DNA of 64,000 nucleotides, taken from assembly GCA_002433235.1 (NCBI GenBank), contig DJHS01000047.1, positions 1,369-65,368 on the forward strand. The letters run 5' to 3'. The number at the start of each line of letters is the position of its first letter. Within the stretch, counting starts at the first letter, position 1. This document shows, in pieces, positions 5,349 to 22,425 of the stretch. Under the pieces are notes generated by a model. That model saw only the letters and a program-made list of their open reading frames with translations, did not search any database and was not told the DNA's origin. This DNA is from Verrucomicrobia bacterium UBA6614. Lineage in GTDB: Bacteria; Verrucomicrobiota; Verrucomicrobiia; Limisphaerales; UBA1100. Position numbers and translations under genes: made by a program.

Positions 5349-6242
5349 ATGAAAACGAATAGACGCTCCTTTTTGCAGGGCACCCTTTCGGCCGCGGCCG
5401 CGGCGGGTGCAACTTGGTTTGATGTGCCGGAACTGTTGGCCAAGTCGGTGAAGCTTTCCAAGGCGCGGGCAGAGTCCCTTCGCAAATATGGTGGGTTTCC
5501 CATGGGTATCCAGAGTTACTCGTTGCGGGCGTTTGGCATCGATGGCAAGGAAGGGGCATTGCAGAAGATTGATGATCTGGGCCTACACTGGGTGGAATTT
5601 TTTGGACGGCATTACCCGATTACGCCGGACAAGGTGAAGATCGCTGAGATGAATGCCAAGCTGGCGAAACATGACATGAGCGTGAGTTCGCACGGGGTCA
5701 ATGGCTTTGGCAATAACCACGAGGCGAACGAAAAGATTTTCCAGTTTGCCAAGTTGGCAGGCATCCCGAACATCAGCGCGGATCCACGGCCGGACAGTTT
5801 TGAGAGCTTGGACAAGCTGGTGGAGAAGTACAACGTCCGCATTGCCATTCACAACCACGGCCCGGGTCATCGCTACAACAAGATTGAGGACTGCCTGAAG
5901 GCGGTGAAGGGGCACGACAAGCGCATTGGGTTCTGTGCGGATCTTGGCCATTTTATTCGTAGCGCGGAAGATCCGGTGGAGGTGGTGAACCGTCTGGGGG
6001 ATCGTTTGTACGGGATTCACCTGAAGGATTTTGCCGAGCAAAAGCAGCGCACCAAGGGTGTCATCATCGGCAAGGGGCACCTTGACGTGGTGGGCGTTTT
6101 CAAGGCGCTCAAGAAGGTGGGCTTTCCGGCGGACGGCGCGTTGAGTTTGGAGTATGAGGAAAATGCGGCCAACCCGATTCCGGATATCAAGGAATGCCTC
6201 GCCATCGCGGCGGAAGGTGCGCAAAAGGCACTGAGGGGCTGA
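5349..6242 (+). CDS. sugar phosphate isomerase/epimerase (xylose-isomerase-like TIM barrel), TAT signal
   Basis: MKTNRRSFLQGTLSAAAAAGA twin-arginine signal; HNHGPGH...FCADLGHF motifs of the AP-endonuclease 2/xylose isomerase-like barrel. Confidence 0.8.
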   Translation: MKTNRRSFLQGTLSAAAAAGATWFDVPELLAKSVKLSKARAESLRKYGGFPMGIQSYSLRAFGIDGKEGALQKIDDLGLHWVEFFGRHYPITPDKVKIAEMNAKLAKHDMSVSSHGVNGFGNNHEANEKIFQFAKLAGIPNISADPRPDSFESLDKLVEKYNVRIAIHNHGPGHRYNKIEDCLKAVKGHDKRIGFCADLGHFIRSAEDPVEVVNRLGDRLYGIHLKDFAEQKQRTKGVIIGKGHLDVVGVFKALKKVGFPADGALSLEYEENAANPIPDIKECLAIAAEGAQKALRG

Positions 6243-6258
6243 GCCTGGTTAATCATTG

Positions 6259-6298
6259 AGCCGGGCGATGGCAAAGGGAATCGCCCGGCTTTTTTGTT
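6259..6298 (+). terminator. rho-independent terminator after isomerase gene
   Basis: agccgggcga(6259-6268)/tcgcccggct(6281-6290) 10-bp stem, 12-nt loop, followed by tttttgtt. Confidence 0.7.
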
Positions 6299-6356
6299 GC
6301 CGGCGGGAACGTATCATTGAGTGGCATGATCGAGGTGTTGATAAAATCAATTATCT

Positions 6357-8015
6357 GTGTTGCGTCGAGTTGTGGCAGTGTCTCGCCCCGTGAGTAAAAT
6401 CGCGCACAAGTCGCTGGCCGGCAGAGGATTTCTTTCCCTCGTCTTCACCCAGTTCTTCGGGGTGATTAATGACAACCTGTTGAAGCAAGTCCTCACCTTC
6501 AGTGTCGCCGCGGCAGGAATCTGGAAAGGAGCGCTTGGGGATGGCGGGCAAGGGGTGGTGGCGATGTGTCTGGTGCTGCCTTTCCTTTTGTTCTCTGCGG
6601 TGGCCGGCCAGTTGGCTGACAAGTACAGCAAACAACTGGTGGCGCGCCGAGTGAAGGAGGCGGAGTTTCTGATCGCGCTGACTGCCTTGGCGGGTTTCTG
6701 GTGGGGCAATGTTTGGCTTTGCCTTCTGGCGATGTTTCTACTCGGGGTGCAGAGTGCCTTCTTTGGGCCCGCCAAGTACGGGGTGATCCCGGAATTGGTG
6801 AGGGAAAATCAACTGGGCTGGGGCAATGGCATAGTGAATATGCTCACCAATGTGGCGGCGGTGCTGGCCATTGTGGTGGGGGGGCCGCTTTACGAGAAAT
6901 TTGCCGGCCAAAAGAACACGGCTGCTGGGCCAGTGGATATTGGGGAGCCGATGGCTTGGTTGCCGGGGTTGTTGCTGTTGCTGGTGGCGGGCTTGGGGTT
7001 GGCAGCGGTCCGGTTCATGCCTGAGTTGCCGGCGAAGCGGCCGGATTTAAAATTCAAGTGGGAATTCTTCGCGCCCTACCTGAGAACCCTGCGGCATATG
7101 CGCGACGGTGGGACGCCCATCCTCACCGTGGCGGTGTTGCGGTCGAGCTTCTTCATGCTGGCCTACATCATCATCCTGATTCTGGCGGATTATACGGTGG
7201 TGCTCGGATTGCCCGAGGCGGAGGTAAGCTTGAAGTTGTTCGGGACTATTGGCGTTTCCATCGCGGTGGGGAGCATTCTGGCGGGGTTTGTGTCGCGGGG
7301 TGGAATCCAGCCCCGTTTGGTGCCCATAGGGGCCATTGGTTTGACGGTTTGTTTTTTTCTGCTGGCCGCTGCCCCATCGAGTTACATGCTGATTTATTCG
7401 GCTGAATCTGGGCAAAGCGACAGCGGCAATTTGCCGATGCTCAGGGAGAAGGGAAAAGTGCTGGTGGGGCAACAGAGAATTATAAGCCGGGTCGAGGAGT
7501 TGAGGTCAGACATAAAGCCGGAGCTGGGCAAGGGCGATTTGTCAGGGCTGTTGCAACAGGTGGCGGATGGAAAGGTGGATGGCTTGGTGATGCCCGCGGC
7601 GCGTTTGCAGGAGATCAAGCTGGAGAAAAGAGAAGGCTCCACGGTTCGCGATGTGAGTGGCAAGGGCGTGCCCGATGGATTGGCGGCGCATGCCATCAAG
7701 GCCCGCGATCGTGACGTGAAGCGCGTCATGATCTACTTGTTCTTGGTGGGAACATTCGCGGGTTTGTACGTTGTCCCGCTCCAGGCGTTGATCCAGAAAT
7801 TGGCGCCGGATGATTCCCGCGGGCGTTATATTGGCACGGCAAACGCAATAGACTCGGTGCTGGAGATTGGCGGCATCGCGTTATTCTTCGTCCTAAGAAA
7901 TGCAGGGATGGCGTCGCAGGATATTTTCTATGTGGGTGGCGCGATGGGGATCATGGCGCTGGGCTTGTTCTACTGGAAAATCCGAAGGCACTTGAATGAT
8001 CCGGAGTGGCGGTGA
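6357..8015 (+). CDS. MFS transporter (LplT-like) with ~200-aa central cytoplasmic loop
   Basis: GTG start; FLSLVFTQFFGVINDNLLKQ N-terminal MFS signature, 12 predicted TM segments, long charged loop 7390-7720. Confidence 0.7.
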   Translation: MLRRVVAVSRPVSKIAHKSLAGRGFLSLVFTQFFGVINDNLLKQVLTFSVAAAGIWKGALGDGGQGVVAMCLVLPFLLFSAVAGQLADKYSKQLVARRVKEAEFLIALTALAGFWWGNVWLCLLAMFLLGVQSAFFGPAKYGVIPELVRENQLGWGNGIVNMLTNVAAVLAIVVGGPLYEKFAGQKNTAAGPVDIGEPMAWLPGLLLLLVAGLGLAAVRFMPELPAKRPDLKFKWEFFAPYLRTLRHMRDGGTPILTVAVLRSSFFMLAYIIILILADYTVVLGLPEAEVSLKLFGTIGVSIAVGSILAGFVSRGGIQPRLVPIGAIGLTVCFFLLAAAPSSYMLIYSAESGQSDSGNLPMLREKGKVLVGQQRIISRVEELRSDIKPELGKGDLSGLLQQVADGKVDGLVMPAARLQEIKLEKREGSTVRDVSGKGVPDGLAAHAIKARDRDVKRVMIYLFLVGTFAGLYVVPLQALIQKLAPDDSRGRYIGTANAIDSVLEIGGIALFFVLRNAGMASQDIFYVGGAMGIMALGLFYWKIRRHLNDPEWR

Positions 8016-8816: not shown

Positions 8817-10082
8817 CTATTTCAGGGGCCAGTTGAAATTCATTCTCCGGCCATTGCGAAGAATGGTGATGGGGAGCGTGTCCCCCGGCTTGTAGTTTTG
8901 CTTAATCCAATAATTAAATTTCCTGTGGTCGAGTCCTCTCACCGGCTTGCCGTTGATGGCGACAATATAGTCGTTCAGGCGCAGGCCGGCGGCTCTTGCG
9001 GCCCGGCCCTCGGGGCTGCTGGTGTTGATCCACTTGACTTTTAATGCACCTTGTCCCGCGGGGAGCTTCAGCCGGGCCAGTTCATTGCCCTTGACCTCCG
9101 GAGTGTAGACCCGCATGCGTGGAGGGAGTGCCCATAGGGAGCCACGCCAGGAGAAATCCGTTTTCTTCCAGTTGGGCTGTGTGCTGATAAGATGAGGTTG
9201 CGTGGCATTGGCCGTTTGCACCCTCAAGGTCTCCTGGCCATTCTTTCGGTTGTGAAGCACCCATTGAATGTCGGCGATGGAGGCAATGGCTTGGCCGTCC
9301 ATATGGGTGATGGCTTGGCCCGGCTTGAGCCCGGCCCGGGCCGCGGGGGAATTGGGTAGGACGCGGGAAATACGCTGGCCATCTTTCGGGTCGATATGCA
9401 GTCCCACATTCTCGGGAAGTGGGTAACGCCATAATTTTTCAGGGGTAAGTTTCTTTTCACGCATCAGTTGCAGGTTCTCAGCATCATGAATGTTGTGGCA
9501 ATGGATGCAATTGTTGCGCTGTGTCAGGAGCCGGTAATTGGCCTTGTTTTCAAGGCCGGGCATTTCCATGGCGGTCTTGTAGGGTTTGGCGGCGCCGCGC
9601 TTGCCCGTCAACTGGGCCTTGTTGCGAGGATAATTGGCATGGAGTGTCAGGACGTGTTGCATGGTCTTGATCAGGCTGTCCACGGAATTGTAGGCATCCG
9701 GCCCGGCACTGGACTGTGTCCCGTAGCGCGCATAGACAGTGCCGTCGGCATTGAGAAACATGGCGGCCCAGTTTAGGTCATAATCGAACTGGAACTGGGT
9801 GAGGTCGACTCCTTTCATTTCCACTTGGCGGACGGAAATGAATTCCTTGCGTGCCAGGTTGGCAACACGGTCGCTGCCCTTGGCCACCTCAGCGTCAAAC
9901 GCGGCACAGGCATGGCAAGGCACGCAGCGGAAGGTGACAAAGAGCGGCTTGCCCGTGCGCTTGGCCTCGGCGAATGCCTTGTGGAGATCATTGTAAATCC
10001 AGAGGGATTGCCCCTTGGCATTGGTGTCGTTTAGGCGGTCGCGCAACGGAGGGGCGGCAAGGACCATCGTGGCGGCGAGCAA
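8817..10082 (-). CDS. periplasmic thioredoxin-like (CVPC) / CxxCH heme motif / tandem PDZ domain protein
   Basis: FVTFRCVPCHAC thioredoxin-fold CxxC near 9920; NNCIHCHN CxxCH near 9486-9520; two PDZ-like segments (GLKPGQAITHMDGQ, GLRLNDYIVAINGK). Confidence 0.7.
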   Translation of the reverse strand: MLAATMVLAAPPLRDRLNDTNAKGQSLWIYNDLHKAFAEAKRTGKPLFVTFRCVPCHACAAFDAEVAKGSDRVANLARKEFISVRQVEMKGVDLTQFQFDYDLNWAAMFLNADGTVYARYGTQSSAGPDAYNSVDSLIKTMQHVLTLHANYPRNKAQLTGKRGAAKPYKTAMEMPGLENKANYRLLTQRNNCIHCHNIHDAENLQLMREKKLTPEKLWRYPLPENVGLHIDPKDGQRISRVLPNSPAARAGLKPGQAITHMDGQAIASIADIQWVLHNRKNGQETLRVQTANATQPHLISTQPNWKKTDFSWRGSLWALPPRMRVYTPEVKGNELARLKLPAGQGALKVKWINTSSPEGRAARAAGLRLNDYIVAINGKPVRGLDHRKFNYWIKQNYKPGDTLPITILRNGRRMNFNWPLK

Positions 10083-10250
10083 CAGGATGGAAAGGAGTGG
10101 CTTGATGGATTAAATCTAGCCCTTTTTGCGTCGTCTTGCAGCAATTTAATTGATCTTTCTTGCGCCGGTAAAATTTTTTGAAAATTATAGTAGCCAACCA
10201 TGGGCGGTTTGCCTAGATTCGTGCCGACCCAATTCATCGCACAGGTGTTT

Positions 10251-10278
10251 CATGTCCCGACCCACATGTCGGGACATG
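10251..10278. promoter_or_regulatory. palindrome (11-bp arms, 6-bp spacer) in divergent promoter region upstream of flotillin operon
   Basis: catgtcccgac-ccacat-gtcgggacatg, followed by AT-rich gtttaaagtttaaactgaaactgaaa ~55 nt upstream of ATG 10335. Confidence 0.3.
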
Positions 10279-10334
10279 GTGTTTAAAGTTTAAACTGAAA
10301 CTGAAATTATTCTTCCAACCAAAGGCTTAAAATC

Positions 10335-12563
10335 ATGATCGAACCCATCCTCGGTATATCTTCTGGAATCATCATCGGCGGGATTGTGTTGGGTGCTCTG
10401 GCTGTTTTTGGGGCCTTTCTGGCCATGTTTTGTCTGCGCAAGGTGAAGGCGGGTGAGGCGGGTGTGCGGACGGGCCTGGGGGGGTTGCAAGTCACCAAGA
10501 GTTACATGTTGCGAATGCCTTTTGTACACCGATGGGACATTATGGATATTCAGGTGAAGAAGCTGGAGGTAGCCCGCAAAGGCAAGGAAGGGTTGATCTG
10601 TCAGGACAATATTCGTGCGGACATTGAGGTAGCATTTTATGTGCGGGTTGATCCTGCCGAGGCAAACATTAAGGAAGTGGCCGAGGCCGTAGGCTGTGAA
10701 AGGGCCTCGGAAATCGAGCTGCTGCGCAGTTTGTTTGAGGCCAAGTTTTCAGATGCACTGAAAGCGGCGGGCAAACAAATGGATTTTGCCGATCTCTATA
10801 CCAAGCGGACGGAGTTCCGAAACATGATCATCAATGAGATCGGTAAGGATTTGAACGGATACAAGTTGGAAGACGTGGCGATTGATTATTTGGAGCAAAC
10901 AGCTCGGGACGACCATGATCCGGAGAACGTCTTGGACGCACAAGGCATTGAGAAGATCAACCGTATCACGGCGCAGATGGAGGAGGACACGAATAAGCGC
11001 ACTCAGCAGAAGGATGTGGAGATCAAGGACCAAAACGTGCGCGCGGAGATGGAGAAGCGTGAGCTGGACAAGCAAAACGAGGAGGACTTGGCTAAGCAAA
11101 CCCGTGCTGTGGAAGAGGCAAAGGCTCGCGAGAATGCCGCCGCCCAGGTGGAAGTGCAAAAGAACCGTGAGGTGTCCGAAAAGGCGGAGATTGAAGCCAA
11201 CCAGAACATCAAGGAACGTGCGGTTGAGGAGGAGCGGGTCGTGATGAGCGCCACCTACGCCAAGGATCAGGATCTGCTCCGGTTGGAACAGGAGAAAATT
11301 GAGTCGGGCGAACAGGCCTCAGTGGAACGGCAAAGGCGGGTTGGATTGCTGGAACAGGACAAGGAGGCCAAGATTATTGAGGCTGCCTTTGGCGTGGCCG
11401 AGAGCAAGGCGGGTCTGGAGTCCAAGGAAAAGGAAGTGACCACCCAGCACCAGCAGCGACTGGATGTGGAGGCGGATATGGAGGCCGATCGCGCCAAGCG
11501 AGTCTTGATGGTCAAGGCCACCGCGCAGGCGGAAGCGGCCATGGTGGAAGAAGTGAAACAGGCTGAAGCCAAGCACCAGGCTCAGAAGGAAATTGCGGAC
11601 AAGGATTTGTATCTGCAGGTGCAAGCGGCGGAAGCATCACGTCAATCCGCGGAAAAGAAGGCGGACGAAGTATTAACCATATCCGAGGCCGAGGCGAAGG
11701 CGAGTGAGAAGCGCAACCACGCCATGCAACAGGAAGCGGAGGGCAACGCTGCCTTGAAGAGCGCGGATGGGCTGGCAGAGGCCAAGGTGATTGCGGCCAA
11801 GGCCGAGGCCAAGAAGGTGGATGCTGAAGCCGAGGAGGCTCAGGGATTGGCCGAGGCCACGGTGATTGCCAAGCAGGGCGAGGCTTCTGGCTTGGCCAAG
11901 GCTGCCGAGGGCGAAGGCGAGGCGAAGGCGGTCTCCGCCAAGGGAACCGCGGAAGCCTCGGCTCTTGAGGCGCTGCGGCTGGCCGAGGCGGAAGGCACTG
12001 AGAAGCAGGGCTTGGCCGAGGCGCTGTCCAAGACCGAGATGGCCAAGGCGATTGAGTTGTTCAACAAGGCCTCGCAGGATCACGAGGAATTCCGCCTGCA
12101 ACTGGACAAGGACAAGGCGGTGGATCTCGCAGGTATCAATGTACAGAAAGATATCGCGGAGGCGCAGGCGCGCGTGGTGGGGGAGGCACTCAAGAGCGCG
12201 AATATCGACATTGTGGGTGGCGAGAACGACTTCTTCGAGAAGGTTGTACGCTCGGTTTCCCACGGTAAATCCGTTGACCGGTTGGTGAACAACAGCCAGA
12301 CGATCACGGACGTGAAGAACACCTTTTTCAATGGCGACCCGGATTACTTCAAGACGCAATTGCGCGGTTGGATCAAGGATTTGGGTGTTTCCAGTGAGGA
12401 CGTGAAGAATCTCACCATCTCGGCATTGCTCACCAAGTTAATCAGTCAGGCTGATGACAGTGGCCTGAAGTCGGTGATCCGGCAGGCGCAAAGCGCGGCG
12501 AAGGAAGCCGGTCTGTCCGATGTGGTTTCCAGTGTGTTGCTGGACGACAAGGCGGGAAAATAA
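10335..12563 (+). CDS. flotillin-like SPFH/Band-7 domain protein (YqiK/FloA family), N-terminal membrane anchor, long Glu/Ala/Lys-rich coiled coil
   Basis: TM helix MIEPILGISSGIIIGGIVLGALAVFGAFLAMF; SPFH core ~10440-11000; EA-rich repeats (AEAKA/AEAEG) characteristic of flotillins; 742 aa. Confidence 0.85.
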   Translation: MIEPILGISSGIIIGGIVLGALAVFGAFLAMFCLRKVKAGEAGVRTGLGGLQVTKSYMLRMPFVHRWDIMDIQVKKLEVARKGKEGLICQDNIRADIEVAFYVRVDPAEANIKEVAEAVGCERASEIELLRSLFEAKFSDALKAAGKQMDFADLYTKRTEFRNMIINEIGKDLNGYKLEDVAIDYLEQTARDDHDPENVLDAQGIEKINRITAQMEEDTNKRTQQKDVEIKDQNVRAEMEKRELDKQNEEDLAKQTRAVEEAKARENAAAQVEVQKNREVSEKAEIEANQNIKERAVEEERVVMSATYAKDQDLLRLEQEKIESGEQASVERQRRVGLLEQDKEAKIIEAAFGVAESKAGLESKEKEVTTQHQQRLDVEADMEADRAKRVLMVKATAQAEAAMVEEVKQAEAKHQAQKEIADKDLYLQVQAAEASRQSAEKKADEVLTISEAEAKASEKRNHAMQQEAEGNAALKSADGLAEAKVIAAKAEAKKVDAEAEEAQGLAEATVIAKQGEASGLAKAAEGEGEAKAVSAKGTAEASALEALRLAEAEGTEKQGLAEALSKTEMAKAIELFNKASQDHEEFRLQLDKDKAVDLAGINVQKDIAEAQARVVGEALKSANIDIVGGENDFFEKVVRSVSHGKSVDRLVNNSQTITDVKNTFFNGDPDYFKTQLRGWIKDLGVSSEDVKNLTISALLTKLISQADDSGLKSVIRQAQSAAKEAGLSDVVSSVLLDDKAGK

Positions 12564-12605
12564 TGTAGCAGCCCGGCTTGAGTTGGCCGGGTGGGTGCTT
12601 GAACC

Positions 12606-15600
12606 ATGGCGGAATCTCCGGACAGTGGCACTCCCGCGGAAGGCGCCCCGGCGGCGCTGGAAGGCGGGGCGTATGACCTGATCAAGCAGCGGTTGAGCGA
12701 TCAGGGCGGCCAGTTGCGGGCCAAGCTCGGGGCGCTGGATGAGCGTCGGGCGCTGGTGTTTGGATCACGCAAGCTGGAGCTGAAGAAGATGGACCGTGTG
12801 TCCACTCAGCTGAGTTGTGAGCCGCGGGACATGATCCAGTTGGGGAACAACCGGTTCCTTTTTGGCTTCAATGTTCAGCTTGGGCTGAAGCAGGGTCAGT
12901 TGGGGGATGTTTTCGCCATCTATAATTACGACGAGGCTGAGCAATCTTTCACTGAGGCTGACTTGGAGGATTTGCGCGATGAGCAGTTTGAGGAATCCTT
13001 TGCCCGACTTTTCCAGATTAACCAGGCGGCTACTTTTCATCGATTTGCCATCATCGGGACACACTTGTACATGGTGTTTCGGACGGGAACCAAGGTGGAT
13101 GATGTCACAGTATTCAAGTGGCTTTGCAAGGATGGTGCTCTAAGTTATGAGGATGATCGCAGCACGCCAGAATATTTGGCACAGGCATTCCCGAGCCAAT
13201 ACAATTTCCAATGGCACACCCCGGCGCGCAACGCCATTCGTCATGGGGATAATCCGCATGTGTCAATCGAGGAGCGGCTGTTTGTGGAATGCGTGGGAGG
13301 GGATCTGACGATCAAGGTCGAGGACAATACCAGTACGGGCGAGGGGATTTATGCTGAGGAAGTGGAGGACCGTAACCAGAAGGTTGATGACGCGGAGATT
13401 CAATATGCCATTCAAGGATCACTGATCCTGTTGAAGGTGACGCCCTATCGCGAGAAGGAAAGCCGGTATTTCATTTTCAATGAGAAACTGCAGGCAGTGC
13501 ACCGGGTGGATTCCATTGGTCAGGCTTGTGTAATGTTGCCGGAGGAGCACGGATTGATGTTCCCGGACGGCTATTATCTGCAAACCGGCGAGTTGAAGCG
13601 TTATGAGAGTGAAATGGGTGAGATGGTGCTGGAGCGCACGGTGACGTCGCCCAACGGTGAGGATTACCTGTATGTTTTCTTCAATCGCATGAGTGGCTTG
13701 TATGCGCTGATGCCCTATCGGTTGATTGAGCAGGAGGTTTCCGAACGGATTGCGTGTAACGGGTTTTCACTTTTCCCAAACGGCGATATTGTGAGTTTTC
13801 GGGCGGAGGAAGAGGCTATCAAGCATCACATGATGCAGCTCCGGCAGTCGCCTTTCTACCAGCCGGGATTTGAGCCGGAGAGCGGGGAGCGGGAATCGTT
13901 CCTGTTCCAGGTGGGCAACAAGGCGGTGGTCAAGGCAATGGCGGAATGCAATGAAGTGTTGATTCTCATCCGGAAGGAATCGCCGTACGCGGACCTGTAC
14001 GCCGATATGGCTTCCAAGGCGCAAGCCATTCCGGATAATTATTCATGGCTGAATTCTGAAGAAGCTCAGGGGGTCAGTGAGATTTTAAGGGAGATTGCCG
14101 GCACGGCCGAAAAGGCGGTGGCGGAATTTGACAAGGTAAGGCGGCTGCGGCTGGAGGCAAGAGAGCGCTCAGGCGATATTGCCGCGCGCGCAAAGACGCT
14201 CTTCGGTCAAGTGGGCCGCGCGGATTTCCGGTCGGTGGACGACTTTGTGGCCAACCTCGGTGGGCTGCGGCGGATGCGTGGCGAGATCATCACGCTGCGC
14301 GATGAGGTACGCTTCATCGACAAGGCGGCGATGGAGGCGCTGGAAACTCAGGTGAAGGAGCAGGTGGACGAGCTTTCGCAGAAATGTGTGGAATTTCTGC
14401 TGCAGCCGGAATCGTTGAATCCATACCGCGAACGCGCGGAGGAACAACGCGGGCGTGTGGATGGCGTGACCACGGTGGTGCAGGGCAAGGAGCTGGAAGA
14501 GGAAATCACCACGGCCGGTTCAGATCTGGAGATGTTGATCGATATCGTGCGCAGTTTGCAGATCGACGACACCACGGAGCAGACGCGCATTGTGGAGGCG
14601 ATCACGGCGATTTATCAGGTGGTCAACCAAGTAAAGGAGGCGCTCAAGAATAAGATGCGCACCCTGATGACCGCCGAGGGCGCGGCACAGTTCAATGCGC
14701 AGATTTTGCTGTTGAGCCAAACGGCGACGAATTATCTGGATATGTCCAACTCGCCGGAGAAATGCGACGAGTACTTCAACAATATTCTCAATCAGCTGGA
14801 GGATCTGGGCGGCGACTTTGCGGATTTCCCGGAATACATCGAGCAGTTGGACGAGAAACGCGGCGAGCTGGAGACGGCCTTCGAGCAGAAACGACTGCAA
14901 CTGGAAGAGGCGCGCAACCGCAAGGCCACGGCGCTGGCGTCCTCTGCCGAGCGCATGCTTAAGAGCATTGAGCACAAGCTGGGCACGTTCGAGGATGTTA
15001 ATGACATCAATGGCTACATGGCCGGGGACCGGATGATTGATTCGATCCGTGAGCGGGTGGAGGAACTGCAGGCGCTCGACAAGGTCGGCGAGGCGGAAGG
15101 CATCCTGAGCCAACTCAAGAGCGTGCACGAGGAGGCGGTACGGCAGATTAAGGACAAACAGGAACTTTACGTCGATGGCCAGAACGTGATCCAATTCGGC
15201 AAACACAAGTTCGCCGTTAATGCCCAGCCGCTGGACCTGACTATGGTGCGCCGCGGCGAGGATCAAAGCCTTCACCTTACCGGTACTCAATACTTTGACG
15301 AGGTGGCCGATGAAGCGTTCTTGGCCACGCGTGAGGTGTGGAACCAGACGGTTGTGTCCGAGGACAATGAGGTTTACCGCGCCGAGTATCTCGCGTTCCT
15401 GCTGTGGCAGAAGCTGGAACAGGAGGGCATCGATCGCATGACTGCGGTGGCAGCCATGAGTGACGAGGACCGTTTACAGGTGGTTCAAGATTTCATGGGC
15501 GATCGGTACTCAGAGGCGTACACGAAGGGAATTCATGATCAGGATGCCGAGAAGATTCTGGCCGCACTGCTCAGTACACAATCGGCGCTGCAATTGGCAC

Positions 15601-18224
15601 GTTATTACCCTCGCGCGCGCGCCTGTGCCGCTGTCTTCTGGCACAAGTTTTGCGAGGCTGACATACAAAAGCTGATGTTGGCCCGGCTGGAAGGGTTTGC
15701 CGCGCGCAATGAGGCGTTTCCCGGTGATCCCACGCAGGCCGATTATGTGGCTGAGTTACGCGCGATGGTGGCGGCATTTATTGAAGAGACGGGTTTATTC
15801 CCAACGGCTGATGCCGATCCCGCGGGTGAGTACCTGTTCTACGAGCACACCAATGGTCGGGACTGGGTGGTGAGCCAGGAGGCGGACAGCCTGCTCACGG
15901 AATTTGAACATCACCTCATCAAGTCCGGTAATGAGTCGGAATTTGTCAAGGCGCAGAAACCGTTGCAAAAAGATCCACACAGTCATTACCAGCTTGTTCG
16001 CGACTGGGTGCGTGGCTTTCTGTTGGATCGCAATGGGGCCAACAAATACCTAGAAGAAGTTTCCGCGCTCATCTTCTGTGGGCACCACCACAGACAGGCG
16101 GTGGTCAAGGCCGCCACTGGACAGGTGCTCAAAGGCATCCAGGGTGCGCACGATGCGGTGCAGGAGGGTGGGCAGTACGAATTTGATTATTTGTCTTTCC
16201 AGGAAAAACTGGGGCGGTTTGTGCGTGAATCCGTACCGCGCTTTGAGGCGTATCAGGAGCTGAAGCAGAAGATTATTGAGGAGGAGAAGGAGGCTTTGCG
16301 CCTGCATGAGTTTGAGCCGCGCGTGTTGTCCTCCTTTGTACGGAACCAGTTGGTGGATGAAGTGTACTTGCCGATCGTTGGCGATAACCTCGCCAAGCAA
16401 ATCGGTGCTGCGGGCGATGCCAAGCGCACAGATCTCATGGGTCTACTGCTGCTCATCTCGCCTCCCGGGTATGGTAAAACCACCTTGATGGAATATCTCG
16501 CCAACCGCATGGGCCTGATTTTCATGAAGATCAACGGCCCGGCGCTCGGCCACGAGGTGACCTCGCTCGATCCCGAGGAGGCACCCAATGCCGGTGCGCG
16601 TGAGGAAGTGAAGAAGCTCAATCTTGCGCTGGAGATGGGCGACAACGTGATGATCTACGTGGACGACATCCAGCACTGTCACCCCGAGTTTCTGCAGAAG
16701 TTTATTTCGCTTTGTGACGCCCAGCGGAAGATTGAGGGCGTGTGGCGCGGCCAGCCGAAGACCTACGACATGCGCGGCCGGCGCGTAGTGGTGGTGATGG
16801 CCGGTAACCCCTACACCGAGAGCGGTGAGAAATTTCGCATTCCGGACATGCTTGCCAACCGTGCCGACACTTACAATCTTGGTGACGACATGAAGGGCAG
16901 AGAGGTCGCCTTCTCCGGTAGTTACATCGAGAACGCCATCACCTCCAATCCCGTGCTGCAACCACTGGCCAAGGCCGCGCAGAAGGATATTCAAGCCTTT
17001 ATTCGCATGGCCGAGACCGACCAGCGCGAAGGCATCGAGTTGCAGGGCAATTTCTCCGCCAACGAACAGGAGGAATTGATCAATGTGATCAAGAAATTGA
17101 TCACGCTGCGCGATGTGGTTCTCAAGGTGAACCAGCTCTATATTGAGAGCGCCGGTCAGGCCGATGAATTCCGCACCGAACCCGCTTTCAAAATGCAGGG
17201 TTCCTACCGGAACATGAACCGCCTTGCGGAAAAGGTCCTGCCGATGATGAACGAGCAGGAGCTGATGGATCTCGTGCTCGACCACTACAAGGGCGAGAGT
17301 CAGACCCTGACTACAGGTGCCGAGGCGAATTTTCTGAAGTTTAAGCAGCTCATCGGCGTGATGACTGACGAGGAAGCTGAGCGCTGGGAGGAAATCAAAC
17401 GCACCTTCGGCCGCAACCAATACCTCCAGGGCGGCGACCAAAACGATCCCGTCAGTCGCGTCGTCAGCCAGCTTTCACTGTTCAGTGGTGGCCTGGAAAA
17501 TATTCAGGACACTTTAAAAGAGGAGTTTTCCAAGGCTCGTTCAACCAACGTGGAATTAGGCGGGATGAGTGAGAGTATTGACTCACTTCGCGAAACGGTG
17601 TCTGAACACCTGAAGCAACAGTCCGAGGCGTCCAGGGAGAATCCTGAGCTGAGCGGGGTGAACGAGAATTTGACGGCCCTGCGGGCGTCGCTTGAAAACT
17701 ATCTGACAAGGGAATCGCAGGGAACTGCGCAATCCGAGGCGGGTGAAACCCCGGCTAAGCCGGTAGCTCCACAGTTCTCCGCCATTAATGAGAATCTGGG
17801 TGCCCTCCGTTCGGCGGTGGAGGCGTATTTGTCACGAAGTGAAGAGTCGACGCAATCCGTGGCCGGCAGCGAAACCGCCCAGTACCTCCAAACCTTGGCG
17901 GCCCACATGAACGAGGGGCTGGCAGCAATTCGCACGGACATGGCGGAGGCCATGAAACAAATGCAGTCCAGCCAGATTTCGCAGCAGGTGTCAGCCATGC
18001 AGGATAGTATCGTGGGACTTCGAGACGTGCTGGCGCAGAACCGGGAACGCCTCAAGCAGGTTCAAGGCAGGCTGAAGGAGGCGGAGCCCGAGGTGGTGAT
18101 GGAGTTTAGCGAGGAAATGATCGACAATAATGAGGCACTCCTTCGCGCCATCTCTCAACAGATTGAGCAACTCCGGGAAGAAGGAGAAGGGGATTCACCG
18201 GGCAAGCCCGAATCTTCACAATAG
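12606..18224 (+). CDS. giant (1872 aa) cytoplasmic protein with one MoxR/AAA_5-type AAA+ ATPase module and long coiled-coil regions; function unknown
   Basis: Walker A LLISPPGYGKTTLMEYL (nt ~16455-16500), Walker B MIYVDDIQHC, then HPEFLQKFISLCDAQRKIEGVW and VVVVMAGNPYTE...DMLANRADTYNL mirroring MoxR/midasin-type DEINRA..Q..LLEAM.E..V.I.G / ATQNP.E...LDRF; 42-nt gap to flotillin stop; coiled-coil tandem repeats NENLxALRxxxExYL near C-terminus. Confidence 0.8.
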   Translation: MAESPDSGTPAEGAPAALEGGAYDLIKQRLSDQGGQLRAKLGALDERRALVFGSRKLELKKMDRVSTQLSCEPRDMIQLGNNRFLFGFNVQLGLKQGQLGDVFAIYNYDEAEQSFTEADLEDLRDEQFEESFARLFQINQAATFHRFAIIGTHLYMVFRTGTKVDDVTVFKWLCKDGALSYEDDRSTPEYLAQAFPSQYNFQWHTPARNAIRHGDNPHVSIEERLFVECVGGDLTIKVEDNTSTGEGIYAEEVEDRNQKVDDAEIQYAIQGSLILLKVTPYREKESRYFIFNEKLQAVHRVDSIGQACVMLPEEHGLMFPDGYYLQTGELKRYESEMGEMVLERTVTSPNGEDYLYVFFNRMSGLYALMPYRLIEQEVSERIACNGFSLFPNGDIVSFRAEEEAIKHHMMQLRQSPFYQPGFEPESGERESFLFQVGNKAVVKAMAECNEVLILIRKESPYADLYADMASKAQAIPDNYSWLNSEEAQGVSEILREIAGTAEKAVAEFDKVRRLRLEARERSGDIAARAKTLFGQVGRADFRSVDDFVANLGGLRRMRGEIITLRDEVRFIDKAAMEALETQVKEQVDELSQKCVEFLLQPESLNPYRERAEEQRGRVDGVTTVVQGKELEEEITTAGSDLEMLIDIVRSLQIDDTTEQTRIVEAITAIYQVVNQVKEALKNKMRTLMTAEGAAQFNAQILLLSQTATNYLDMSNSPEKCDEYFNNILNQLEDLGGDFADFPEYIEQLDEKRGELETAFEQKRLQLEEARNRKATALASSAERMLKSIEHKLGTFEDVNDINGYMAGDRMIDSIRERVEELQALDKVGEAEGILSQLKSVHEEAVRQIKDKQELYVDGQNVIQFGKHKFAVNAQPLDLTMVRRGEDQSLHLTGTQYFDEVADEAFLATREVWNQTVVSEDNEVYRAEYLAFLLWQKLEQEGIDRMTAVAAMSDEDRLQVVQDFMGDRYSEAYTKGIHDQDAEKILAALLSTQSALQLARYYPRARACAAVFWHKFCEADIQKLMLARLEGFAARNEAFPGDPTQADYVAELRAMVAAFIEETGLFPTADADPAGEYLFYEHTNGRDWVVSQEADSLLTEFEHHLIKSGNESEFVKAQKPLQKDPHSHYQLVRDWVRGFLLDRNGANKYLEEVSALIFCGHHHRQAVVKAATGQVLKGIQGAHDAVQEGGQYEFDYLSFQEKLGRFVRESVPRFEAYQELKQKIIEEEKEALRLHEFEPRVLSSFVRNQLVDEVYLPIVGDNLAKQIGAAGDAKRTDLMGLLLLISPPGYGKTTLMEYLANRMGLIFMKINGPALGHEVTSLDPEEAPNAGAREEVKKLNLALEMGDNVMIYVDDIQHCHPEFLQKFISLCDAQRKIEGVWRGQPKTYDMRGRRVVVVMAGNPYTESGEKFRIPDMLANRADTYNLGDDMKGREVAFSGSYIENAITSNPVLQPLAKAAQKDIQAFIRMAETDQREGIELQGNFSANEQEELINVIKKLITLRDVVLKVNQLYIESAGQADEFRTEPAFKMQGSYRNMNRLAEKVLPMMNEQELMDLVLDHYKGESQTLTTGAEANFLKFKQLIGVMTDEEAERWEEIKRTFGRNQYLQGGDQNDPVSRVVSQLSLFSGGLENIQDTLKEEFSKARSTNVELGGMSESIDSLRETVSEHLKQQSEASRENPELSGVNENLTALRASLENYLTRESQGTAQSEAGETPAKPVAPQFSAINENLGALRSAVEAYLSRSEESTQSVAGSETAQYLQTLAAHMNEGLAAIRTDMAEAMKQMQSSQISQQVSAMQDSIVGLRDVLAQNRERLKQVQGRLKEAEPEVVMEFSEEMIDNNEALLRAISQQIEQLREEGEGDSPGKPESSQ

Positions 18225-18236
18225 AATCTGATGGGA

Positions 18237-19025
18237 TTATTTAATCTCAGGGAACTGTATCCAACGGTCCAATCCCTTGCCGTCTTCCTTGACTTCCTCC
18301 TGAACCACGACCGGCTTTGACGCGGGCAATTCCGTGGCAGACGGTGTTGGCTGGGCCGGCTGGGCTTTGGGTGCCGACAGTGTAGCCGGTTCCGGTTGTT
18401 TCGGTAATGGTGCGGGCTCTTCTTCTGTATCGTCCTTTATATCGAAGCTGCTGGTGAAGGATGATTTGGTGAAACTTGAGGATGAAATAAAGGGTGACCG
18501 GGTCTCTTGGGCGGGCTCCGGGGCAGGAGTTTTTGTGTCGGCCGCGGGAGCCTCTTCCTCGGGCTTGGCCCAGTTGATGTGGATGGCTGGGACCACGCCT
18601 ACCTCGATTTCGAAATTGCAAAGCTCCAGCGAGGAGAGGTTAACCTTGTCTTCCATCTGTTCCGCCTTGCGGATGGCTTTTAGTAGAGCGCTGACCACCT
18701 TGCGATCTTCATGCTTTTCAATCAGTTTCCTGAAGGCGCGGTCACTAATGTCTTCCACGCGACGAATACTGGGCACGACCTTGGGGTTGAACCCCATCTC
18801 GATGCGTAGTCCGATCAACTCATATCCTGCCTCCTCAAAAACAGACGTCGACTCCTGGATCTCCGTCAGGGTATCCATGATCTTCTCCTCGTTGTCTGCC
18901 TTTAGGTCCGACACCGTGCCTTCCACCTCCTCCCGCAGTTCGCGCAGGGTGGTCGAGCCCTCCTCAACCGCCTTGCGGATTTTCTCCGCTTTTGCCTTAA
19001 GATTCTTGATGAAACTGATCGCCAT
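18237..19025 (-). CDS. hypothetical acidic protein with Pro/Ala/Thr-rich low-complexity linker
   Basis: 262-aa ORF convergent with giant gene (12-nt gap); N-terminal ~170-aa helical domain, PAPEPAQ...PKAQPAQPTP linker, C-terminal LDRWIQFPEIK. Confidence 0.55.
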   Translation of the reverse strand: MAISFIKNLKAKAEKIRKAVEEGSTTLRELREEVEGTVSDLKADNEEKIMDTLTEIQESTSVFEEAGYELIGLRIEMGFNPKVVPSIRRVEDISDRAFRKLIEKHEDRKVVSALLKAIRKAEQMEDKVNLSSLELCNFEIEVGVVPAIHINWAKPEEEAPAADTKTPAPEPAQETRSPFISSSSFTKSSFTSSFDIKDDTEEEPAPLPKQPEPATLSAPKAQPAQPTPSATELPASKPVVVQEEVKEDGKGLDRWIQFPEIK

Positions 19026-19190
19026 GATATTTCCCGGGTTTGATGTTTGATATAGACGGTTTCGGCCGACGGCGCTGGGTGCCGCAATCCTAGGCTTTGC
19101 CTCGAGAAAGAAAAGTCAAATTTGCATATTGGCAGTGGGCTTCAAGCTGCCTACAATCGAATCACCCGACGCACGCAGATTCTTGTGGCC

Positions 19191-19904
19191 ATGAAAGATC
19201 ACGAAGTAAAAGATTATCTCCGAAAGACTTTTGATGACGGCAGGCTTGTCCGGAAGGAGCGGGATGCCCTGCAGGAATTGCTGGGCAAACGTGGAGTCAA
19301 CGACCAGAAGCGGGCGTTGTATCGCAGCATGGCTTTTGACATCGCCCGGGAGGTGAGTACGGCCGGCGATGCTGAGCAAAGACGCATGGTCATGGATTGG
19401 CTGGAGGCCGTCATCAAGGCCTTTTACCCTGCTGAGCCCATTGGTGTGGACGCCAACCGTGTCGAGGCAGAGGTATGGTTCAGCCCGGATGATGATTGCG
19501 TGGGCCGAATAATTGATCTTCTTGCCCAAGCCAGGCAAACCGTCGACATCTGTGTCTTTACCATAACCGACAACCGCATTGCCGAAGCCATCGCGCGTGC
19601 CCACCAGCGCGGCGTTCGGGTTCGCGTGATTTCCGATGATGACAAGGCCTTTGACAAGGGATCAGACGTGGGCCGGCTGCGCGGCCAGGGCATTGATTGC
19701 CGCGTGGATAACACCGAGCACCACATGCATCACAAGTTCGCGATTTTTGACCATCGGCTTTTGTTGACTGGCAGTTATAATTGGACTCGATCCGCCGCAT
19801 TGAACAATGAGGAGAACTTTGTTATTAGTGGCGATCCGAGGTTGTTGAAAAATTTCGCCCGAATGTTTGACAAGCTTTGGGCTGATTTCGGTCGGACCTC
19901 ATGA
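19191..19904 (+). CDS. phospholipase D-family single-HKD nuclease (Nuc/BfiI-like) with ~80-aa N-terminal extension
   Basis: HMHHKFAIFD...TGSYNWTRSA HxK(x)4D(x)6GSxN motif near 19727-19790; ATG 19191 (MKDHEVKDYL); ORF track opens at 19122 with TTG. Confidence 0.75.
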   Translation: MKDHEVKDYLRKTFDDGRLVRKERDALQELLGKRGVNDQKRALYRSMAFDIAREVSTAGDAEQRRMVMDWLEAVIKAFYPAEPIGVDANRVEAEVWFSPDDDCVGRIIDLLAQARQTVDICVFTITDNRIAEAIARAHQRGVRVRVISDDDKAFDKGSDVGRLRGQGIDCRVDNTEHHMHHKFAIFDHRLLLTGSYNWTRSAALNNEENFVISGDPRLLKNFARMFDKLWADFGRTS

Positions 19905-19923
19905 CCCAGCGCGCTCCAAGCGC

Positions 19924-22425
19924 ATGAAAAGCACGGAGCCATCCCCGCCCAAACGCAAGATTCGCCTTCGGTTCAAGGCGAAGGACTTGGAGCGCATTGA
20001 TATTGATGCGCTTCGCCGACAGCTTGGAGTAGCAAAGGAAAAGGAGCGCGGACCGAAGCCCTCAATCGAGACTGAGCCGGAGCCGGTTGTGGAACACACG
20101 TCTCCGCCAACTATCCATGAGCCATCCATTTCTGGGCAAGCGCAGCCGGGAATTCAGCAGAAGATCTCTTGGCGGTATGTTGCATTTGGTGCGGCTTGTT
20201 TAGGCGTCCTTGGGTTGATTGCATGGGGAATGGTCGGAGTTGTCAGCGGTCTGCTTGATAGTGGTTTAAGGGAGGAAGCCAAACCGAAGGTTCAAGGCAA
20301 CGGGGAAAAAGCTCCACCCGCGCCTTTATGGCCTAGGATTCCTGAGACAAAACCAAATTCACAAGTTCAAGTGATGGCGCAGAAAGGGAATCCGGATGCG
20401 GCGTTTGATTGGGGGGTTCATTTGGCCGGAAAGCTGGATGGCAACCCTGAGCTTGCCCCGGAAGTGTTTAATCATTTTCGGATTGCCGCCGAGGAAGGTC
20501 ATGGCCCCGCTATGATGAACCTCGCATGGTGTTATGAGAACGGCGTTGGAACGCCAGCTGAAATCACTGAGGGCCTCGGCACTGAGTTACGGGCAGAGGC
20601 TGATTTGCCGATTAGTCCCAAGGGTGAAAATTCTCGAATGGGCTGGGCAATTTTGGCGGGCATGGTGGGTTGGTTCGTTCTTTGGGCTGTATCCTCTATG
20701 GGCTGGAGCAAACGGATGGCAGGCCTTTCTGAAGAAGAACGGGGGTTTGTCGGCAAAGCGGCGCATGTTCATCTCGGCGGGTACGGGGAGGTTAGTTTGA
20801 AATCCATAGGCGGATTAGTCCTTTGCCCGCTTGTGCTTGGGTTTGCATGGATGATTTATCAGTCGGGCATCTGGGCAGGCGATGTTTTATACGCGTCAAT
20901 TGCGTTTGGCCTGCCGGCTTCAGTGTTGTTGCTTTACATTGTATCTCGGTTTCGCTGGGAACCGTTTGCGGCCTTCAATTATCACGCCGGCACCCGGATG
21001 CCGGATGGCTTCTGCGAAGAGACAGAATTCCACATGCTGATCCGAAAACTTCCCCTGCTGGTCATGTTGACGCTTTTGTTTTGGGATCTGGTCGAGCTTG
21101 GTTGGGCATTCTGTCTGGCTGTTGGACTGGTTTGGTGGATTCTTGGGAAAGGAGTTGATCCATTGCCACAGATTGACCTAAAGCCGCCCCGGAATGGGTT
21201 GGAAGAATCAAAAAAATATTGGTGGCCCATCCAAAACCTCCCCCGGTTTATTTTCATTGCGGCAGCTTATTATCTGTTTGGTTGGTTTGGGTTTTTGGCG
21301 GGATTTTCAATCTGTGCGATTGATATGTTGCCCTTGACAGGTTCCAAGCCACCGCCACGATTGCCTGAGACTTCAGCGCAATTCATAGAGCGAAGGGTTA
21401 TTCATAATGTGTCAGCGATGAGGGTTTGGTGGGGCGTTTGGGTAACACTTTTATTGGTATTGTCGTTAACGAGCGAGTATGCGGTGAGTATGGTAAGGGA
21501 GATTGGAATTATTTCGTTCATTATCGCAATCATCTTTCTGTCATGGATGTGGCCCAAGGGATCCAAGATCCAGCCGGAAGCTATTCGATATATGCCGAGA
21601 TGGATCGCGGTTGCTTGGGCACAAGTCGTCATAGGGTATGCCTGCTGGGCATTCACTGGATTGGTGTGGGTTCAATTCACTTTCGTCGTCTTGGGATTGC
21701 TGGGGTTGTCCTTTTGCCGGATGATACTTCTCAATGGAGAAAAAACATCCCTAGGTCGCCAATTGACATGGGGTTTTCGTGATGAGTGTTGGCTTATGAG
21801 TTGGTGGCGAATTAAATCCCCGCATTTGCTTTTCACGGCGGCAGTTGTGGGGGCGTTGCTGGTTTTATGGGAGAATGGCCTTGTATTTTACGGCCTCAAG
21901 CAATGGGGAATTGGCACGGTGGTATTGGGAGGGATGTTTATTTTGGCGGTTGGGAAGGGCGGGGAAGAAAGCGGAGATAACAGAAATTTATCCCGCCTTG
22001 CGAAACCGGACTTAAGGTTGAGCAGTGTGTTGGCCGAGAATGGCATTCTGATCCTGGCGGGAGGGATGTTGATTGCCTTGCTCGTTCCGGAAAATTCAAG
22101 GTTTGGATGGTTTGAATATTTTTGGGCAGCGACCTTGTTTATGGGCATGCCAATCATGTTCTTGGTTGCCTTGGCTTGGGTGAAGCTTCGGAGGCTATCC
22201 TTGTTCGGAAAGCAGTTCAGAGAGCGTGAACCGATATTTGTTCATGAAACAAGAGGTTTGCAGGTGAGATGGGGTAGACTTTGTGCTGTAGCTGTTCTAG
22301 CGGGAATCTTGGCGGCTTCGACGATTACCGGCTTAACCGGCGGCATGCACAAGGGCTTTCGAGTAATCGTTGATGGCTGGGGTTATCAAGTAATCGATGG
22401 GGGATTTTACCTCCCGGATAAATAG
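19924..22425 (+). CDS. polytopic membrane protein with N-terminal Lys-rich cytoplasmic tail and a Sel1-like repeat; unknown function
   Basis: ATG 19924 (MKSTEPSPPKRKIRLRFKAK); Sel1/TPR-like AAFDWGVHLAGKLDGNPELAPEVFNHFRIAAEEGHGPAMMNLAWCYENGVG near 20390-20550; >15 hydrophobic segments; local GC ~40-50% versus ~60% background. Confidence 0.7.
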   Translation: MKSTEPSPPKRKIRLRFKAKDLERIDIDALRRQLGVAKEKERGPKPSIETEPEPVVEHTSPPTIHEPSISGQAQPGIQQKISWRYVAFGAACLGVLGLIAWGMVGVVSGLLDSGLREEAKPKVQGNGEKAPPAPLWPRIPETKPNSQVQVMAQKGNPDAAFDWGVHLAGKLDGNPELAPEVFNHFRIAAEEGHGPAMMNLAWCYENGVGTPAEITEGLGTELRAEADLPISPKGENSRMGWAILAGMVGWFVLWAVSSMGWSKRMAGLSEEERGFVGKAAHVHLGGYGEVSLKSIGGLVLCPLVLGFAWMIYQSGIWAGDVLYASIAFGLPASVLLLYIVSRFRWEPFAAFNYHAGTRMPDGFCEETEFHMLIRKLPLLVMLTLLFWDLVELGWAFCLAVGLVWWILGKGVDPLPQIDLKPPRNGLEESKKYWWPIQNLPRFIFIAAAYYLFGWFGFLAGFSICAIDMLPLTGSKPPPRLPETSAQFIERRVIHNVSAMRVWWGVWVTLLLVLSLTSEYAVSMVREIGIISFIIAIIFLSWMWPKGSKIQPEAIRYMPRWIAVAWAQVVIGYACWAFTGLVWVQFTFVVLGLLGLSFCRMILLNGEKTSLGRQLTWGFRDECWLMSWWRIKSPHLLFTAAVVGALLVLWENGLVFYGLKQWGIGTVVLGGMFILAVGKGGEESGDNRNLSRLAKPDLRLSSVLAENGILILAGGMLIALLVPENSRFGWFEYFWAATLFMGMPIMFLVALAWVKLRRLSLFGKQFREREPIFVHETRGLQVRWGRLCAVAVLAGILAASTITGLTGGMHKGFRVIVDGWGYQVIDGGFYLPDK

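Follow-up and report, generated by a model that had tools for sequence, protein, structure and literature searches.

What a single AAA+ module does near the C-terminal end of an 1872-residue protein is the question raised by one gene in a 64,000-nucleotide stretch (the window) of contig DJHS01000047.1 from Verrucomicrobia bacterium UBA6614. An earlier note, made from the letters of this DNA, had taken the module for a MoxR-type ATPase set in an otherwise unassigned coiled-coil protein. Here we put forward, with somewhat more belief than doubt, that the giant protein is a soluble AAA+ ATPase of the DUF3686 family, working with the flotillin-like protein encoded upstream of it and remodelling flotillin scaffolds. 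Because the giant gene almost always directly follows a flotillin-like gene, it most likely acts on membrane scaffolds and not on DNA.

The giant gene and its flotillin-like partner

The gene directly upstream of the giant gene, overlooked in the earlier note, encodes a flotillin-like protein with a long helical region rich in Glu, Ala and Lys after its SPFH domain. The hydropathy maximum of this protein (2.58) lies within residues 1–37, and Band_7 (PF01145) was matched with E=3e-14 when its N-terminal 222 residues were searched. The full-length protein gave no Pfam match, and nothing was obtained for the C-terminal 520 residues, the Flot domain included.

The linkage of the two genes was counted in 54 loci in which the giant N-terminus is complete and 2.5 kb or more of sequence lies upstream; a metagenome scan contributed 80 loci to the comparison. 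A flotillin-like gene on the same strand was present upstream of the giant gene in 52 of the 54, ending within 800 bp of it in 49 and at a distance of 864–3992 bp in three more. Likewise, such a partner occurs in 25 of the 26 clusters into which the giant proteins fall at 60% identity. The linkage of flotillin and giant genes is near-obligate.

The same gene order is found in Streptacidiphilus (Actinomycetota), in the metagenomic contigs L022 and L023, and in distant Verrucomicrobia, one of which carries an IS200-type insertion between the two genes. In the soil/freshwater verrucomicrobial genome L025 it is an IS200/IS605-type Y1 transposase gene (6176–6628), with small open reading frames (ORFs) on both sides, that separates an otherwise intact pair. 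The order in Chitinophagaceae (L021) is CesT-like, PspA, YqiJ-like, flotillin, giant. More generally, in most of the clusters other than the two verrucomicrobial ones the flotillin gene comes after YqiJ/NfeD-like genes, and in several clusters it comes after CesT–PspA genes. On the plasmid pQBR103 the pair lies downstream of DUF350, DUF1190 and glutathionylspermidine-synthase genes. This plasmid (L106; 87–98 kb of the record) is a well-studied megaplasmid of Pseudomonas fluorescens SBW25, and its cluster reads DUF2491, DUF350, DUF1190, glutathionylspermidine synthase, a hypothetical 217-residue protein, an SPFH protein and a 1748-residue ‘DNA repair ATPase’, with a PLD family gene about 8.6 kb downstream; it may offer a ready-made system for experiments.

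In the window, the two genes are probably co-transcribed. A promoter and terminator scan reported no such site in the 42-nucleotide spacer between them, and its counts were no higher than in shuffled sequence. The spacer holds a hairpin at 12571–12592, with a 7-bp stem (GCCCGGC/GCCGGGT, 12571–12577 and 12586–12592) and an 8-nucleotide loop, which might affect mRNA stability or the coupling of the two genes.

The earlier note had considered that the giant ORF could be an assembly chimera joining several genes. The ORF is genuine, since relatives on independent contigs align with it over residues 1–1872 at 75–85% identity, and full-length homologues are collinear with it. The closest contigs encode proteins 97–98% identical to it. 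A database search with the giant protein returned 2032 matches, the best 120 of which are 1578–1931 residues long and without exception (120/120) carry DUF3686 and DUF7902, most of them with an AAA-type match as well. When the AAA and lid region (residues 1201–1640) was searched against 1.84 billion cluster representatives, 964 clusters were obtained at E<=1e-3, 743 at E<=1e-10 and 397 at E<=1e-30. All of the best 150 belong to the DUF3686-type giant family, their full-length members measuring 1590–1930 residues with the AAA module some 1150–1430 residues from the N-terminus. The family comprises several hundred clusters at 50% identity, and its conservation extends over residues 1–1640 across phyla, peaking in the AAA region.

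Full-length homologues span Verrucomicrobiota, Bacteroidota, Actinomycetota, Deinococcus and Gammaproteobacteria. Named members come from Chitinophagaceae, Aureibacter and Streptacidiphilus, and further ones from Hymenobacter, Proteus mirabilis, the Pseudomonas plasmid pQBR103, Deinococcus, Halomonas, Vibrio, Photobacterium, Streptomyces and Nonomuraea. A search of 50,697 phage records gave zero matches to the family. In one locus (L058, 8954–11518) the giant homologue is seemingly split into two ORFs (8954–10216 and 10220–11518), and the flotillin/YqiJ genes upstream are represented by a fragment only; either decay of this copy or a problem of assembly may be the cause.

The AAA+ module

The three strings on which the MoxR-type assignment had been based were recovered in the giant protein, LLISPPGYGKTT at residues 1282–1293, MIYVDDIQHCHPEFLQKFISLCDAQRKIEGVW at residues 1349–1380 and RRVVVVMAGNPYTESGEKFRIPDMLANRADTYNL at residues 1392–1425. 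As had been claimed, there is a single AAA module: Pfam yields one (PF00004 at 1281–1362 and AAA_5 at 1281–1405, both exceeding their gathering scores), and no other P-loop was found in the whole protein. A strict scan of the whole protein for [AG]xxxxGK[ST] gave no match, because the P-loop begins with serine (SPPGYGKT). In a 300-residue slice the classical AAA profile scored 31.7 bits and AAA_5 31.4 bits, which amounts to no difference. The stated lack of VWA, protease and nuclease domains in the giant protein was likewise confirmed with Pfam, NCBIfam and PADLOC, and extends to the adjoining genes; the NCBIfam and PADLOC scans gave sub-threshold P-loop matches and a coiled-coil match to LmuB only. 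Furthermore, no VWA gene is present in the annotated contexts of the window, Aureibacter, Streptacidiphilus, Chitinophagaceae, L022/L023, the distant Verrucomicrobia or pQBR103.

Residue conservation was scored across 88 aligned full-length members, drawn from several phyla. Invariant in all 88 are G1288, G1290, K1291 and T1292 of Walker A, D1353, D1354 and H1357 of Walker B (VDDIQH), R1374, the sensor-1 residue N1401, R1419 in the NRAD motif and R1535 in a lid helix (GSYRNMNR), with R1523 conserved in 87. Since Walker A, Walker B, sensor 1, R1419 and R1535 are all invariant, the module looks catalytically competent, judging by its sequence, and the degenerate P-loop that had been considered is not what the intact motifs indicate. 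The arginine finger and sensor 2, which the earlier note had left to be located, thereby have invariant candidates in R1419 and R1535.

Searches of the PDB with the sequence and with two family profiles gave only matches at the level of Walker A, to RuvB and p97. As sequence searches reach only the neighbourhood of Walker A, the clade was assessed by structure. The second of two AlphaFold models, made for residues 1190–1640 with a more diverse alignment, reached a predicted local distance difference test (pLDDT) value of 87.5 and a predicted template modelling score (pTM) of 0.77. In this model the elements run β1 (1281–1284), α1, β2 (1305–1310), a short helix, a 14-residue loop, α2, β3 (1348–1353), a β-hairpin (1375–1380/1383–1388), β4 (1394–1400) and β5 (1421–1423), followed by the helical lid and the C-terminal domain. 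The β-hairpin, which lies between α3 and β4 and corresponds to the pre-sensor-1 hairpin, is present in both models. The helix-2 region is modelled as a short helix (1311–1314) and a conserved loop (1315–1328, LDPxxAPNA) leading into α2, and in the HMMER alignment to p97 a gap of merely 2–3 residues falls at this position.

Foldseek E-values were about 1e-6 for RuvB, MCM and CbbQ alike and gave no discrimination, the top target-normalised template modelling scores (0.45–0.51) being those of CbbQ and NorQ. The pre-sensor-1 hairpin/helix-2-insert clade is said, after Iyer et al. in 2004, to unite MoxR, dynein, midasin and MCM. Membership of the pre-sensor-1-hairpin superclade is well supported by the predicted fold, and the solved structures closest to the modelled module fall within the pre-sensor-1-hairpin/helix-2-insert clade.

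Of the earlier helix-2-insert, MoxR-type call, then, the MoxR-like fold stands; the helix-2 hairpin is not seen in the model, and the MoxR-specific profile does not match: AAA_3 (PF07726) gave no match at E<=1, though HMMER filters remove most matches above about 0.1, and it is also missing from the precomputed Pfam lists of the best 120 of the 2032 homologues. The giant protein uses a MoxR-like module, yet it is not a member of the MoxR family. Besides AAA_3, it differs from the MoxR-type ATPases CbbQ (6l1q), NorQ (9qh4) and RavA in having no adjacent VWA/MIDAS gene, in a Walker B that reads DD and not DE, in the want of a modelled helix-2 hairpin, and in the C-terminal position of its module, with about 1280 residues of additional domains ahead. 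Midasin/Rea1 and the dynein heavy chain have six concatenated AAA modules, whereas the giant protein has one and would need to oligomerise; it also has neither a MIDAS nor a microtubule-binding domain, and the resemblance is one of analogy, not orthology.

Other domains and neighbouring genes

The N-terminal 1200 or so residues, earlier regarded as unassigned, are not so, because PF12458 and PF25472 match there and cover part of them (Table 1). The DUF3686 match (PF12458) has E=5e-154 and covers profile positions 2–447 of 448. This N-terminal part is described as ‘β-propeller repeats’ in passages of Ravi et al. 2024 (PMC11237479); self-comparison with hhalign revealed no internal repeats in the DUF3686 region, and the PDB searches with the sequence and the two family profiles found no relative for the N-terminal 1200 residues. 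Residues ~480–1000 form a helical, coiled-coil-like middle region with DUF7902 inside it, for which only weak matches of coiled-coil type were obtained (LmuB at 584–872; syntaxin Habc, E=0.026). The giant protein has no transmembrane segment, its 19-residue hydropathy maximum being 1.0.

At the other end, the alignment columns of the tail (1641–1872) consist of 54–91% gaps across phyla, and its pLDDT is low. The NENLxALR repeat reported there does exist, as two copies duplicated at the protein level only; Tandem Repeats Finder detected no DNA tandem repeat in the giant ORF. In homologues this stretch is 89–93% gaps.

Table 1. Positions of the genes and protein features discussed, numbered from the first letter of the window; residues are those of the protein encoded.
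Feature	Position	Strand	Details
Trx7/PDZ (seleno)protein family gene	8817–10082	-	NCBIfam NF041199, E=1e-130
Flotillin-like gene	10335–12563	+	742 aa; transmembrane segment/hairpin, residues 1–37; SPFH/Band_7, residues 36–183
Intergenic spacer	12564–12605	+	42 nt, between flotillin-like and giant genes
Giant ORF	12606–18224	+	ATG start, 1872 aa, uninterrupted; soluble
DUF3686 domain, β-rich N-terminal head	12714–14042	+	residues 37–479, PF12458
DUF7902	14412–14660	+	residues 603–685, PF25472, E=1e-20
Helical domain before AAA module	15606–16295	+	residues 1001–1230, three or four short β-strands
AAA+ αβα core	16440–16880	+	residues 1279–1425
Walker A SPPGYGKTT	16458–16484	+	residues 1285–1293
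Walker B VDDIQH	16650–16676	+	D1353/D1354
Pre-sensor-1 β-hairpin	16728–16769	+	strands 1375–1380/1383–1388
Sensor-1 N1401	16806–16808	+	directly after β4
Arginine-finger candidate R1419 (NRAD)	16860–16862	+	before β5
Lid and conserved C-terminal helical domain	16881–17525	+	residues 1426–1640, helices in the second model
Motif QGSYRNMNR with sensor-2 candidate R1535	17208–17210 (R1535)	+	in lid region
Variable helical tail	17526–18221	+	residues 1641–1872, Verrucomicrobiota-specific
NENLxALR copies	17661–17705 and 17787–17831	+	residues 1686 and 1728, 42 residues apart
orf262	18237–19025	-	262 aa, no Pfam domain; convergent with giant gene
PLD-like gene	19122–19904	+	260 aa, single HKD motif, PLDc_2 E=1e-30
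Polytopic membrane protein gene	19867–22425	+	852 aa, at least 12 hydrophobic segments, no Pfam/NCBIfam match

Downstream of the giant gene lies orf262, whose product has a structured N-terminal part of about 150 residues and a tail rich in Pro, Ala and Ser. It is related (30% identity, E=1e-27 to 1e-28) to genes of 264–269 residues in the distant Verrucomicrobia L024 and L025, where these directly follow the giant gene on the same strand; in the window's clade the gene is inverted. Members of this family adjoin the giant gene at its 3' end in every verrucomicrobial cluster; the family consists of 58 proteins, unnamed or ‘hypothetical’ in their sources, and the named ones come nearly all from Verrucomicrobiota metagenome-assembled genomes. 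Beyond Verrucomicrobia, in L021 and L022, the genes that follow the giant gene bear no relation to orf262. With GvpN being MoxR-like and orf262 faintly matching GvpQ, a link to gas vesicles was considered; it was rejected, the GvpQ match (E=0.0018) lying far below the cut-off and no other gas-vesicle match being found among the scanned neighbours.

The PLD-like gene is kept downstream of the giant gene in the window's clade, and a PLD-like gene is also found near the flotillin–giant pair in L039, L046, L051, L052, L057, L079 and pQBR103; its product may be an accessory component. The 3' end of the PLD-like gene in the window shares 38 nucleotides with the start of the gene for the 852-residue membrane protein, which was met only in very close relatives (L012, L032). 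On the other side, the Trx7/PDZ gene is divergent from the flotillin-like gene and presumably encodes a Cys form, because the ORF is uninterrupted. Its neighbourhood is kept in most related contigs of marine Verrucomicrobiales reaching far enough upstream, and across diverged genomes the synteny with pheST and the Trx/PDZ gene is stable. Over the window as a whole (1–64000), GC skew (the strand asymmetry of guanine and cytosine) is positive in most 2-kb windows, the cumulative skew climbing from 0.4 to 4.6 with a single short reversal at about 26–32 kb; the first 2 kb show an unusually strong skew of 0.41 at a GC content of 61%.

Possible functions of the giant protein

The operon and a “novel AAA+ ATPase” within it have been described computationally by Ravi, Anantharaman et al. 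(2024, mSystems, PMC11237479; preprint 2020). The passages of that paper on the system give a neighbourhood of CesT/Tir–PspA, a YqiJ/YuaF protein with three transmembrane segments and sometimes a PLD (HKD) hydrolase, with shortened operons in which, besides the flotillin protein, only YqiJ/YuaF and sometimes the ATPase are left, and they suggest a role in the assembly and remodelling of sub-membrane complexes. The domain order described there, β-propeller, coiled coil and AAA+, corresponds to DUF3686, DUF7902 and AAA in Pfam. This order, and the gene directly upstream coding for a transmembrane segment, Band-7 and a coiled coil, match the window; in the supplementary material, the gene order of the Dokdonia donghaensis example is that of the Chitinophagaceae locus (L021). 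We infer from this matching operon structure, and not from an accession, that the two families are the same. The window's clade differs in that YqiJ/NfeD, CesT and PspA are not next to the pair, and its variable tail of about 230 residues and the 262-residue neighbour are absent from the passages of PMC11237479 searched. The architecture that had struck the earlier note as unusual is so relative to textbook MoxR proteins only, the family being already modelled in Pfam and described by Ravi et al.

How might such a protein work? In the mechanism that we propose, the C-terminal MoxR/CbbQ-like modules would assemble into a ring, as those of the structural relatives CbbQ and NorQ do, and the helical region of about 800 residues (~480–1280) would carry the β-rich DUF3686 head. 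In classical MoxR systems a separate VWA protein serves as the adaptor; the head would take its place in cis and bind the target, which would be either the flotillin/SPFH scaffold or clients that this scaffold holds. The binding and hydrolysis of ATP would drive the assembly, disassembly or remodelling of sub-membrane scaffolds under envelope stress; in lineages other than this one, YqiJ/NfeD, CesT–PspA and a PLD-type enzyme would take part as well. All this would take place at the inner face of the membrane. A transmembrane segment is present in the flotillin-like partner but not in the giant protein, in agreement with the recruitment of a cytoplasmic factor to a membrane scaffold.

Work on related membrane proteins fits flotillin remodelling in three respects. 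SPFH proteins build domed ring assemblies on membranes (PMC12624060); FloA–NfeD holds unfolded proteins (PMC11222466); and in Bacillus subtilis an SPFH protein cooperates with PspA, connecting it to the membrane (PMC8581546).

Several points weigh against this proposal. The physical interaction of the flotillin-like and giant proteins we infer from gene order only, and Aureibacter, the only exception to the linkage, has a giant gene without an adjacent flotillin gene. A literature search found no experimental work on any DUF3686-type giant ATPase. The evidence for the fold of the AAA module rests on a predicted model, the first AlphaFold model (residues 1001–1872) having been mis-folded around the P-loop, and according to DSSP the pore-lining helix-2 hairpin is absent from the second. 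Finally, Walker B (MIYVDD, 1348–1354, on strand β3) is DD and not DE in 88/88 members, which may make hydrolysis slow and switch-like instead of that of a processive motor.

The proposal has a more specific form and one main rival. In the more specific form, which we offer tentatively, the giant protein is a dedicated ATP-driven remodeller of flotillin cages, a MoxR-clade ring with a cis-fused DUF3686 head on a long helical arm that opens, disassembles or loads the SPFH dome or extracts clients from it. If so, it would be the flotillin counterpart of Vps4 acting on ESCRT-III/PspA or of FtsH with HflK/C, and it would give bacterial flotillins an energy-consuming cycle; the one tested system, flotillin–NfeD of Staphylococcus aureus, has been described as ATP-independent (PMC11222466). 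Like the giant protein, FtsH and Vps4 are AAA+ proteins coupled genetically or physically to an SPFH cage (HflK/C) or to a PspA/ESCRT-III polymer. However, they belong to the classical AAA clade and have transmembrane and protease or MIT domains of their own, and the giant protein is homologous to them only in the AAA fold.

The rival, which appears rather unlikely to us, is that the giant protein is a nucleotide-gated scaffold, a long structural tether organising flotillin domains or linking them elsewhere, in which the AAA module is a slow ATP switch of oligomerisation. It would account well for the invariant DD of Walker B, for more than 1000 residues of helical or coiled-coil-like sequence and for the pore-lining hairpin missing from the model. 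DnaA-type switch ATPases likewise have a DD Walker B. It accounts less well for a set of sensor 1, R1419 and R1535 that is invariant, for the pre-sensor-1 hairpin kept in the model, and for the closest folds being those of CbbQ and NorQ, which are active remodellers.

Large coiled-coil NTPases are common in defence systems, and a role in anti-phage defence or other conflict, as a large AAA+ sensor or effector whose partners would be a nuclease-like PLD/HKD protein and an SPFH protein of the membrane, was weighed with this in mind. The recurrence of a single-HKD PLD-family gene near the flotillin–giant pair and the carriage of the family on megaplasmids such as pQBR103 speak for such a role; it is nevertheless improbable, given that PADLOC yields only the weak LmuB match and P-loop matches below threshold, that the phage records contain no member, that synteny with the housekeeping genes pheST and the Trx/PDZ gene is stable, and that the recurring partners are genes of envelope stress (PspA, CesT, YqiJ/NfeD) and polyamine genes.

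That the giant protein is a DNA repair ATPase related to SMC, RecN or SbcC, as the Pfam description of DUF3686 (‘ATPase involved in DNA repair’), the NCBI name ‘DNA repair ATPase’ and the weak profile match to SMC-like LmuB would have it, is scarcely credible, since its NTPase is a contiguous AAA+ module and not an ABC/SMC head, SMC_N or AAA_23-type matches are lacking, Pfam and NCBIfam show no DNA-binding or nuclease domains, the weak RuvB matches are restricted to the Walker A region and the LmuB match to the coiled-coil region, and the conserved neighbours are membrane proteins. The name ‘DNA repair ATPase’, which has been propagated to many proteins, is probably wrong and finds no support in sequence or context.

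Flotillin-scaffold remodelling by the giant ATPase would bear on a wider problem, in that both the function and the assembly turnover of bacterial flotillins are unsettled. The window adds no new type of system, the family and its operon being known from computational work, first in the 2020 preprint and then in the 2024 paper. What is added beyond the literature found is the structural placement of the ATPase, on the predicted model, in the CbbQ/NorQ–dynein–midasin group, the invariant DD of Walker B, the candidate arginines, a quantified flotillin linkage (52/54 loci), a third gene specific to Verrucomicrobia (orf262) and the recurrence of a PLD-like gene. Conserved in at least five phyla as a near-obligate partner, by gene linkage, of one class of long flotillins, the giant family offers a concrete handle on the flotillin question because its ATPase is intact and of the CbbQ/NorQ type. 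Tractable carriers include Proteus mirabilis, Vibrio campbellii, Streptomyces and Pseudomonas fluorescens SBW25 with pQBR103, and the family, which is large, could make the function of bacterial flotillins experimentally tractable.

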